A stretch of DNA of 6,064 nucleotides, taken from the NCBI RefSeq assembly GCF_003334385.1, contig NZ_QOWN01000078.1. One strand, given 5' to 3'. A program made the position numbers. Position 1 is the first letter of the stretch. Every line of letters begins with the position of its first letter. Origin of the DNA: Escherichia coli (lineage in GTDB: Bacteria > Pseudomonadota > Gammaproteobacteria > Enterobacterales > Enterobacteriaceae). Shown piece by piece: positions 3,001-6,000 of the stretch.

Positions 3001-6000
3001 AAAAGAGCTGTTCGGCGGGGCAATTAAACGCCCGTGAGAGTCTGAAATAACCGCAAGCCGGAGATCAGCATCGGTCACCACAGCAGCCACTGCTTTGGCG
3101 GTACCAGTTTGTACACTTGCTTCCGGCTGGTACCGCTATTTTTACAAAACAGAGAAGAGCATCACCGGACGACGGGCTCATAACCCAATCCACCCGGGCG
3201 GCTGCCACCGCAGGTGTTCTTCTCTGTTTTGTGGAGAAACCAACCGACCTTGCAGGGTCGATATGATGAGGAGCAGCAAAATGGCTAGCGAACGCAGTAC
3301 TGATGTGCAGGCATTTATCGGGGAGCTGGACGGCGGCGTATTTGAAACCAAAATCGGCGCAGTTCTCAGTGAAGTCGCTTCCGGTGTGATGAACACGAAA
3401 ACCAAAGGTAAGGTCTCGCTCAACCTGGAAATCGAACCGTTTGATGAGAACCGTGTGAAAATAAAACACAAACTCTCATATGTTCGCCCGACTAACCGCG
3501 GGAAAATTTCTGAAGAAGACACCACCGAAACGCCGATGTATGTCAATCGCGGTGGTCGCCTGACTATTCTACAGGAAGACCAGGGACAATTACTGACTCT
3601 TGCCGGTGAACCTGACGGAAAACTCCGCGCAGCAGGTCATTAATATCGTTCTTAATTAACTGATTATTTATCTCATCACTGAATATCTTAATATAGTGAG
3701 GACTTATTATGTCTCAGAACTTAGACGCAACCGCAATTAATCAAATCCATGCCCTTATTTCTGCTCAGGGTGTTAATGAAATTATCAGTAAGATTGGTGC
3801 CGATGCTGTGGCATTGCCTGAGAATTACCGCATTCATGATCTGGAAAAATTTAATTTAAATCGTTTCCGTTTCCGTGGTGCGCTTTCCACTGCCAGCATC
3901 GATGACTTTACCCGTTATTCTAAAGATCTTGCAGATGAAGGCACCCGCTGCTTTATCGATGCTGATAATATGCGTGCCGTCAGTGTGCTTAACCTGGGTA
4001 CTATTGATGAACCAGGTCACGCAGATAACACCGCCACTCTCAAACTGAAAAAGACAGCACCGTTCTCTGCCCTGTTGTCTGTTAACGGCGAGCGTAACTC
4101 CCAGAAATCACTGGCAGAATGGATTGAAGACTGGGCCGACTACCTTGTGGGCTTTGATGCTAATGGTGACGCCATTCAGGCAACAAAAGCGGCTGCGGCA
4201 ATTCGTAAAATCACGATTGAAGCAAACCAGACCGCTGATTTTGAAGATAATGACTTCAGCGGCAAACGCTCCCTGATGGAATCTGTCGAAGCGAAGACCA
4301 AAGACATTATGCCAGTGGCATTTGAATTTAAATGCGTTCCGTTTGAAGGTCTGAAAGAACGTCCGTTTAAATTACGCCTCAGCATTATCACTGGCGATCG
4401 TCCTGTACTGGTTCTGCGCATTATTCAGCTGGAAGCAGTGCAGGAAGAAATGGCTAACGAATTTCGTGATCTGCTTGTTGAGAAATTCAAGGACAGCAAA
4501 GTAGAAACCTTTATTGGTACTTTCACCGCCTGATTTCATTACTGCAAATGCCCCTGCGGGGGCATTTATGGAAACGTAATTGACTCAATAATCGCCGGAT
4601 GGTGAGGGCTTCCTTTTACCAGAATTCAGCGCGGTGCAGCGCATATACGTGGAGAACAAAATGTCATTTATTAAAACTTTTTCCGGGAAGCATTTTTATT
4701 ATGACAAGATAAATAAAGATGACATCGTTATTAACGATATCGCGGTTTCCCTTTCAAATATCTGTCGCTTTGCCGGTCATCTTTCTCACTTCTACAGCGT
4801 CGCCCAACATGCGGTGCTTTGCAGCCAGCTGGTGCCGCAGGAATTTGCTTTTGAAGCGTTAATGCATGATGCAACAGAAGCGTATTGCCAGGACATCCCA
4901 GCTCCACTGAAACGCCTTCTTCCTGACTATAAACGGATGGAAGAAAAAATAGACGCCGTAATCCGTGAGAAATACGGGTTACCTCCTGTTATGAGCACGC
5001 CAGTGAAATATGCCGATCTCATTATGCTGGCAACCGAACGTCGCGATCTCGGGCTTGATGATGGCTCTTTCTGGCCTGTACTGGAAGGTATCCCGGCGAC
5101 AGAGATGTTCAAAGTTATTCCACTGTCACCAGGCCATGCCTACGGGATGTTTATGGAACGTTTTAACGAGTTATCGGAGTTACGCAAATGCGCATGAATG
5201 TTTTCGAAATGGAAGGGTTTCTTCGCGGGAAATGTGTACCACGAGATCTGAAAGTGAATGAAACAAATGCTGAGTACCTGGTACGTAAATTCGATGCGCT
5301 TGAAGCTAAATGTGCGGCACTGGAAAACAAAATAATACCAGTGTCAGCTGAACTGCCGCCAGCAAATGAAAGTGTTCTGTTATTTGATGCTAACGGAGAA
5401 GGCTGGCTAATTGGCTGGCGTTCTCTCTGGTACACCTGGGGACAAAAAGAAACCGGAGAATGGCTGTGGACATTTCAGGTCGGGGACCTTGAAAACGTCA
5501 ATATCACTCACTGGGCAGTAATGCCGAAAGCACCGAAGAATAAAAAATGAGCGTGATAAAAACTCATACAGGAATTGTTATCACCCGAGACGGTCCGCAG
5601 GTAAAAAAACTGCACCAGACAAAGCGGATGTGGGTCGTCGGAAAAAACGAGTTTTACCACAAAGAAACCGGACGCCGCCACTTTGCAGAAAATACTCGCC
5701 GCCGACTGCTGATCGATACCATCAAGCCTATCGAGGTGAAGCATGTTTAAACAGAACGAAAAATCTATCGCTCAAATTGCTGAGTATATCCCGCGTGCGT
5801 GCCGGGATATGCAGTTGCAGGAAGCCAAAGCACGCCTGGAGAAAAAAATTGCGCTCTATATCGATGACGGCTGTGATGCCGCCGTTCTTAACGCGGCGTT
5901 CGCGCCAGCTCTTAACAGTCATACGCGAAAGTCTTTTTTTTCGTGCATCACAGCGCAGATCCGTAAAGGAGGCAACCAGTGAGCAACATTAACTATCAGG

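Follow-up and report, generated by a model that had tools for sequence, protein, structure and literature searches.

The genes yfdP, yfdQ, yfdR and yfdS, carried on a 6,064-nt stretch of Escherichia coli DNA (the window, in which all positions are counted), are best accommodated by a model in which they form an early host-takeover and DNA-metabolism block of a lambdoid prophage: a YfdP-YfdQ cassette joined to YfdR and YfdS, of which the best-documented activity is the blocking of DnaA-dependent helicase loading at oriC. This model is ranked first and is held with a confidence that falls somewhat short of even. It proposes that upon loss of the cI repressor, transcription from the leftward promoter (PL) would proceed past a hairpin in the leader, and YfdP, YfdQ, YfdR and YfdS would be made; YfdR, aided by YfdQ and YfdS, would then block DnaA-dependent helicase loading at oriC, such that initiation on the host chromosome would stop while phage replication went on. 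The weak deoxynucleoside monophosphate (dNMP) phosphatase activity of YfdR would be secondary. The block would represent a composite of three pieces (yfdP-yfdQ; yfdR; yfdS/yfdT) and not one machine. Its anatomy is that of yfdPQ followed by yfdR, yfdS and two small open reading frames (ORFs), not that of a four-gene unit.

All four genes lie on the plus strand: yfdP (120 aa) at 3281-3643, yfdQ (274 aa, DUF2303) at 3709-4533, yfdR (178 aa, an HD-domain phosphohydrolase) at 4661-5197 from the ATG start given by RefSeq, and yfdS (120 aa, DUF551-like) at 5188-5550. An in-frame GTG at 4634 is an alternative yfdR start that would yield a protein of 187 aa. A gap of 65 nt separates yfdP from yfdQ and one of 127 nt separates yfdQ from yfdR. 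The model is supported by the near-identity of these genes to ones that have been tested experimentally. Positions 3262-5535 align without gaps to yfdP-yfdS of the K-12 prophage CPS-53 (KplE1) at 97.9% nucleotide identity, and the residues identical to K-12 number 119 of 120 for YfdP, 272 of 274 for YfdQ, 175 of 178 for YfdR and 115 of 120 for YfdS (96-99%), so that the gene names proposed in an initial annotation of this stretch, made from the sequence alone, hold. As the homology to K-12 begins 19 nt upstream of yfdP and stops 15 nt short of the end of yfdS, bounded at 3262 and 5535, the four genes travel as one mosaic block in E. coli. Gene set, order and spacing are all the same in K-12 CPS-53, in SfV (orf32-orf29) and in mEp460 (gp35-gp32), although the repressor and the leader upstream of 3262 differ from those of K-12 and SfV, and the window carries ORFs of phrog_1226 and phrog_1344 where these have yfdT. 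Neither the block nor its study is new: yfdP-yfdS is very common, and the K-12 copy has been investigated before.

In that earlier work, yfdQRST was isolated as a multicopy suppressor of over-initiation (Noguchi & Katayama, 2016; PMC4776307), and the minimal multicopy set that blocked initiation at oriC consisted of yfdQ, yfdR and one of the two genes yfdS and yfdT, the latter being able to replace yfdS in the K-12 assay. Purified YfdR bound domain I of DnaA via Phe46, a site shared by DiaA and the DnaB helicase, and competed moderately with these two proteins, and extracts inhibited oriC replication in vitro (PMC4776307). DnaA binding is known for the K-12 proteins and is predicted for the YfdR of the window, which differs at 3 of 178 residues. 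The authors suggested a role like that of λ P for the ancestral phage (PMC4776307). YfdR indeed resembles both the λ P protein and Bacillus subtilis SirA in that it binds DnaA and blocks oriC initiation, and SirA and YfdR share a target in the Phe46/Phe49 patch of domain I (PMC4776307). However, there is no relation in sequence or fold to either protein, as YfdR is an HD hydrolase that needs YfdQ together with YfdS or YfdT in vivo, and its effect is seen on overexpression only. In addition, a preprint from the Wood laboratory reported that production of a co-resident phage needs the yfdQ of CPS-53 and rises with its overproduction (bioRxiv 10.1101/413146). The suggestion in the initial annotation that none of the genes has an established phage role overlooks both this effect on phage yield and the YfdR-DnaA work.

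Several observations nevertheless weigh against inhibition of oriC as the natural function. The effect was obtained with multicopy plasmids only, and its authors allow that it may be an artefact of overexpression; deletion of yfdQRST produced no replication phenotype; no stable YfdQ-YfdR or YfdQ-DnaA complex was found; and yfdP, the first gene of the block, was dispensable for the inhibition (PMC4776307). Further, the window lacks yfdT, read-through of the leader hairpin is assumed, with no promoter mapped, and 14 of the 20 lineages in which YfdP-YfdQ were found (see below) have no YfdR. As most carriers lack YfdR, inhibition of DnaA is not the core function of YfdP-YfdQ, and the pair must have a function of its own. 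It is possible that oriC inhibition is what YfdR contributes during phage growth, while YfdQ may act, early in lytic growth, on phage or host DNA transactions, with YfdP as its dedicated small partner.

The separation of the block into a constant pair and variable additions comes from a survey of 152 loci, of which 134 were drawn from IMG/VR and the others were K-12, SfV, mEp460, metagenome contigs and eleven annotated phage regions. Their ORFs were searched with profiles of YfdP, YfdQ, YfdR and YfdS, the YfdQ proteins being grouped at 80% identity into 20 lineages. A YfdP homolog lies immediately upstream of YfdQ on the same strand in 18 of the 19 evaluable lineages; in the remaining one, Acinetobacter phage 4316, yfdQ is split and yfdP adjoins its first half. 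The pairing extends across Escherichia, Vibrio, Thalassomonas, Xanthomonas, Pseudomonas and Acinetobacter phages. The yfdP-yfdQ cassette is ancient, is always found as a pair and is present in many phages of Proteobacteria. In 6 of 20 lineages, the Pseudomonas type included, YfdR lies downstream of YfdQ on the same strand, either next to it or with one gene in between, and a YfdS-like gene is present in 2 of 20. The accessory status ascribed to these genes stands. Since the YfdR family is rare overall (333 of 50,697 phage records) and mostly occurs where YfdQ is absent, its repeated pairing with YfdQ exceeds chance, although YfdR is still optional. Within the E. coli lineage the block is nearly fixed, YfdP occurring in 83, YfdR in 81 and YfdS in 65 of 84 loci. 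The idea of a four-gene module, for which co-occurrence across prophages had been named beforehand as the decisive check, does not survive this comparison: outside of E. coli and Shigella only yfdP-yfdQ is conserved. The functional unit is the strictly conserved pair, with yfdR as a recurrent, optional partner, and the design of knock-out and pull-down experiments should follow it. yfdS, along with yfdT in K-12 and SfV, specifies small lineage-specific proteins coupled to yfdR; for yfdS the coupling is probably translational, given its 10-nt overlap with yfdR.

YfdQ matches DUF2303 (Pfam PF10065) over model positions 2-269 of 269 (E 5.3e-93) and phrog_210 (E 5e-120), and is thereby a member of a family that comprises 1472 clusters at 50% identity with a uniform length of ~270 aa. 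It is acidic (isoelectric point (pI) 5.0), and its near-invariant residues include R56, H104, E140, D141, W142, R166 and R223. An alignment-based AlphaFold2 model was obtained with a mean predicted local distance difference test (pLDDT) score of 92.6, a single-sequence AlphaFold model (pLDDT 34) having been discarded. The model had no fold match in a PDB fold library extending to 8 April 2026, which lacks entry 9o7m, and neither sequence nor fold similarity was detected to the Rad52/Redβ/Erf proteins, to RecA-like Sak4 or to OB-fold proteins; as modeled, the fold of YfdQ is an orphan, with no solved relative up to April 2026. The sole match to YfdQ by sequence in the PDB is 9o7m, entitled ‘YfdQ Protein’ (E 9e-45), the sequence of which derives from a CP2-like Xanthomonas phage and which contains 36 YfdQ chains starting at chain C. 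Judging by these 36 chains, YfdQ builds a large homo-oligomer. The absence of 9o7m from the fold library implies that it was released after 8 April 2026. The profile of YfdP found no match in the PDB, from which it follows that the other chains of 9o7m are not YfdP. YfdP belongs to phrog_204, and its homologs carry PF27127 (‘YfdP’) in precomputed annotation; the copy of Pfam-A that was searched, which lacks PF27127, gave no match, and searches of Pfam-A, the PDB and profiles detected no relative outside of its own family. NCBIfam holds no model for YfdP, YfdQ or YfdS. The possibility that YfdP is a domain of YfdQ was considered and rejected (hhalign probability 0.3%).

These features have led us to a second proposal, put forward tentatively and with less confidence than the model above: that YfdP-YfdQ is a structurally new two-protein system, formed by a ~270-aa oligomer of orphan fold and a 120-aa partner, which makes up a hitherto unrecognized fifth component of phage recombination and replication modules and might guard recombination intermediates or DNA coated with single-stranded DNA-binding protein (SSB), or conceal them from sensors of the host, YfdR being an enzymatic addition that recurs. 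The genomic surroundings of the pair bear on this proposal. Within the fetched loci, 12 of the 20 lineages have at least one recombination, SSB or exonuclease gene on the strand of the pair, an association that is qualitative, as no null rate for the early regions of temperate phages stands behind it. The usual companions of the pair are a repressor 2-3.5 kb upstream and genes of DNA metabolism, among them those for Erf, RecT or Rad52, for exonucleases of the RecE-like and DnaQ-like kinds, and for an SSB encoded ~1 kb downstream. The order is YfdP-YfdQ-ORF36-Erf-RecE-like exonuclease-x-SSB in CP2, Erf-RecE-like exonuclease-DnaQ exonuclease-YfdP-YfdQ-x-SSB in D478, RecT-exonuclease-SSB-YfdP-YfdQ in ArgO145 and DUF2800-DUF2815-YfdP-YfdQ-PolA (DNA polymerase I) in Acinetobacter phage 4316. 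In the last of these (L011, 6986-7835), yfdQ consists of two overlapping ORFs of 113 and 181 aa inside the DUF2800-DUF2815-PolA replication module, which may reflect a frameshift, a sequencing error or a pseudogene, and that module also contains a DUF551 gene, 3 kb downstream. A family of ~380-510 aa proteins (phrog_17928/16469/1376) also stands beside YfdP-YfdQ or exonuclease genes in three unrelated phages, represented by ORF36 of Xanthomonas CP2 (L002, 3933-5468), gp28 of Vibrio VvAW1 (L003, 3029-4180) and a protein of Vibrio 1.232.O (L007), and may be another uncharacterized member of these recombination regions.

A more conventional interpretation of the same surroundings is that YfdP-YfdQ, with or without YfdR, is an unrecognized accessory of recombination or replication, such as a mediator, a factor that protects ends or single-stranded DNA, or a partner of SSB. 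This is unlikely in our estimation, despite several points in its favor. In phages that have no canonical Rec module (SfV, mEp460, LLS, ST64B), the pair takes the exo/bet/gam slot, and elsewhere the genes that flank the cassette on one or both sides encode an annealing protein, an exonuclease and SSB (CP2, D478, ArgO145, Acinetobacter 4316). YfdQ is a large oligomer, its conserved H104, E140, D141, R56, R166 and R223 would fit a site for metal or phosphate, and weak sensitivity to methyl methanesulfonate (MMS) and H2O2 on deletion of yfdQ has been reported (cited in PMC4776307). However, many carriers already possess an annealing protein and an exonuclease (ArgO145, D478, CP2, and Vibrio 1.232.O with Rad52), 8 of 20 lineages have no recombination gene nearby, and YfdQ is acidic and does not resemble Rad52/Redβ, RecA or OB-fold proteins in its fold. 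Compared with the known lambdoid Rec modules (λ exo-bet-gam, P22 erf-abc, Rac recET), YfdP-YfdQ shows no homology to a known exonuclease, annealing protein, RecBCD inhibitor or SSB, and it co-exists with complete modules of this type. A 2025 survey of lambdoid phages described yfdP and yfdQ as common in early-left operons and without known function, in phages that lack Rec (LLS, ST64B, φNP) as well as in ArgO145 with its full Rec module, and judged a role in recombination unlikely in light of this co-existence (PMC12315714). Inhibition of RecBCD by YfdP-YfdQ was set aside as a candidate, carriers of the LLS type being described as having neither a recognizable Rec module nor a RecBCD inhibitor.

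The enzymatic character of YfdR suggests yet another function for the block. Phage T5 Dmp is the classical phage enzyme that dephosphorylates dNMPs, and YfdR could similarly remodel nucleotide pools as a 5′-deoxynucleotidase that acts on dNMPs during lytic growth, with the other genes as unrelated passengers. Its HD motif is intact (H50, H69-D70 and a downstream Asp align with those of PDB 2gz4), which places it in the HD family; it matches phrog_318, annotated as deoxyribonucleoside 5′ monophosphate phosphatase (E 2e-111); RefSeq names the K-12 protein 5′-deoxynucleotidase; and the YfdR family is widely distributed among lytic phages and jumbo phages, and these manage nucleotide pools. Low-affinity dNMPase activity of K-12 YfdR has been reported (Zimmerman 2008, as cited in PMC4776307). 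YfdR thus has in common with the YfbR-type 5′-deoxynucleotidases (NF003009, PF12917) the HD metal-binding motif, the published activity and a weak match to the Pfam YfbR-like model (5e-5; that to Pfam HD_3 is likewise weak, at 0.0082). However, it scores 19.8 bits (E 5e-4, residues 50-107 only) against the YfbR equivalog NCBIfam NF003009, for which the cut-off is 122 bits, its reported substrate affinity is much lower, and its nearest solved relative is not YfbR but Atu1052 (PDB 2gz4), a protein of unknown function. The HD domain of the initial annotation is secure, while the assignment as a 5′-deoxynucleotidase falls below the equivalog cut-off. In addition, it is hard to see what a temperate phage that leaves host DNA undegraded would gain from destroying dNMPs, and the requirement for yfdQ and yfdS in the genetic experiments would be left unexplained. 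Remodeling of nucleotide pools is, on balance, rather improbable as the function of the block. The match of the companion protein YfdS to DUF551 (PF04448), the family initially proposed for it, is borderline in score (independent E-value (i-E) 0.0012, 20.1 bits) but spans the whole model (positions 3-68 of 68, residues 50-117); YfdS matches phrog_583 with E 2e-81.

It had also been proposed that the block may counter host defences, which could occur either through hydrolysis by YfdR of a nucleotide-derived immune signal or through the YfdQ oligomer, with YfdP, sequestering or acting as a decoy for a host immune sensor. Large acidic homo-oligomers are a common format for sponges and decoys, and YfdQ is a large homo-oligomer of an acidic protein; the genes lie in an early-expressed accessory region and are spread in a patchy manner across unrelated temperate and lytic phages. 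However, direct evidence of any kind was not found. The sequence, length and gene order of YfdP-YfdQ (1472 clusters, ~270 aa) are far more conserved than those of typical anti-defence genes, and the steady neighbors of the pair are genes of DNA metabolism. A search of PADLOC-DB, a library that covers defence and not anti-defence, gave no match to the six proteins at E up to 0.1. The anti-defence role is thus unsupported, and we consider it more doubtful still than an effect upon nucleotide pools.

The persistence of the block in K-12 was previously taken as a sign of benefit to the host, and retention in cryptic prophages for stress tolerance, for example through slower initiation after DNA damage, would be an alternate scenario. 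The block is intact in the decayed CPS-53, and deletion of yfdQ or yfdS conferred weak sensitivity to H2O2 or MMS while multicopy yfdQRST increased resistance to hydroxyurea (PMC4776307). Purifying selection on the block is clear, as had been supposed, the ratio of nonsynonymous to synonymous polymorphism (pN/pS) between the window and K-12 being 0.09. However, of 5426 complete E. coli genomes 3025 carry the block, with as many as seven copies and mostly within ordinary lambdoid prophages, and the selection signal is explicable by life in active phages, with no host benefit needed; persistence in K-12 is accordingly a weak argument. Further, the phenotypes are weak, the same genes occur in viable and even lytic phages, and in a lysogen no expression would be expected of genes preceded by operators under repressor control and by a leader that resembles a terminator. 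A benefit to the lysogen is the least probable of the functions considered here, and very unlikely overall.

The early expression that the host-takeover model requires is suggested by the layout of the window, which contains the immunity region and early-left arm of an E. coli lambdoid prophage. The yfd genes are flanked by cI with its operators and by xis/int, all on the same strand, and the segment they occupy represents the early-left (PL) operon block of a prophage of the SfV/mEp460 type. The repressor gene upstream (1866-2558, plus strand) encodes a cI-type protein with XRE helix-turn-helix and S24 peptidase domains (phrog_4/phrog_6201 repressor, E 2e-62; ‘XRE family transcriptional regulator’ in RefSeq), and the layouts of SfV and mEp460 are alike, in agreement with the early-left position beside the immunity region that was initially assigned. 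The closest chromosomal match is an E. coli prophage with 97.4% identity across all 6064 bases and identical gene annotation in RefSeq, in which the operon continues beyond the window into ea22-like genes, xis and int. The nearest viable phages are mEp460, with a leader that is 99% identical and an equal gene order, and SfV, the complete early-left arm of which reads cI, terminator, orf33, second terminator, yfdPQRST, xis and int. Directly 3′ of cI on the plus strand lies a hairpin that resembles an intrinsic terminator (2579-2596; scan match AGCCACCAGAAGGTGGCT followed by TTTC), and SfV has an annotated terminator at the equivalent place. Just past it are two operator-like palindromes of the form TTGC-N7-GCAA (2614-2628 and 2638-2652). 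With one more at 1831, in the gap between cro and cI, this motif has three copies in the window, against 0.33 expected. The three copies support control of the yfd genes by the repressor, and 2614-2652 is a putative OL/PL region; that the genes are PL-driven is a good inference from the strand of cI and these motifs, although the promoter was not pinpointed.

The putative operators are followed by a long leader (2653-3280, plus strand), without a convincing ORF and given no coding sequence by RefSeq, which ends in a hairpin with a 25-bp stem and a U-rich 3′ side (inverted repeat I1, 3139-3237, plus strand). Folding of 3130-3280 gave −58.5 kcal/mol (z = −5.3 against shuffles), and SfV has two annotated terminators at the matching place, so that the description of the genes as lying behind a terminator is reasonable. 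Rfam and ARAGORN found no known RNA or tRNA in the leader. The ~680 nt from the cI terminator to yfdP (2597-3280) contain 53% G+C, and mEp460 annotates just two doubtful minus-strand ORFs there. The leader is a patchwork, in which 2700-2811 is 89% identical to an unannotated stretch of P1 between tRNA-Ile (trnI) and ban, and 2938-2979 recurs, again unannotated and at 91-93% identity, in phages of Klebsiella, Erwinia and Salmonella. A second, GC-rich hairpin, AAATGCCCC-TGCG-GGGGCATTT (inverted repeat I2, 4546-4569, plus strand), lies just 3′ of the yfdQ stop codon, where the yfdPQ sub-block adjoins yfdRS. Other E. coli genomes contain incomplete copies of the block, with yfdPQ alone or with yfdR and what follows it. 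These copies break at this hairpin, and it may function as an internal attenuator, as an mRNA-stabilizing 3′ end or as a recombination joint.

Downstream of yfdS are two small basic ORFs on the plus strand, of 67 aa (5547-5750, phrog_1226, pI 10.8) and 79 aa (5743-5982, phrog_1344, pI 9.2), which overlap their neighbors by 4 and 8 nt and are members of the yfd operon. They take the place of the yfdT of K-12 and SfV, and the same pair is found together in ArgO145 and mEp460. On the minus strand of the window are a cro-like gene (1508-1768), the cII-like ymfL (964-1515) and the start of a Rha-family gene. This early-right side also has minus-strand matches to the C4 antisense RNA RF01695 at 419-506 (81 bits, gathering score 45) and to the Hfq-binding RNA isrK, RF01394, at 531-607 (62 bits, gathering score 50), and the c4 target sites a1/b1 are matched weakly at 568-620. 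Beside the Rha-family gene, the RNAs at 419-620 look like a c4-antirepressor control unit of the P1/P7 immI type in the early-right operon.

The cluster itself is ordinary, and the interest that remains lies in the always-paired YfdP-YfdQ cassette with its orphan fold. YfdP-YfdQ is among the commonest early-gene pairs in phages of Proteobacteria, with a solved assembly of 36 chains and no function on record, and in the ~22% of lambdoid phages that reportedly have no recombination module (PMC12315714), it is this pair that occupies the early-left operon. Knowledge of what YfdP-YfdQ does would thus show how lambdoid phages that lack Rec manage their replication and recombination.

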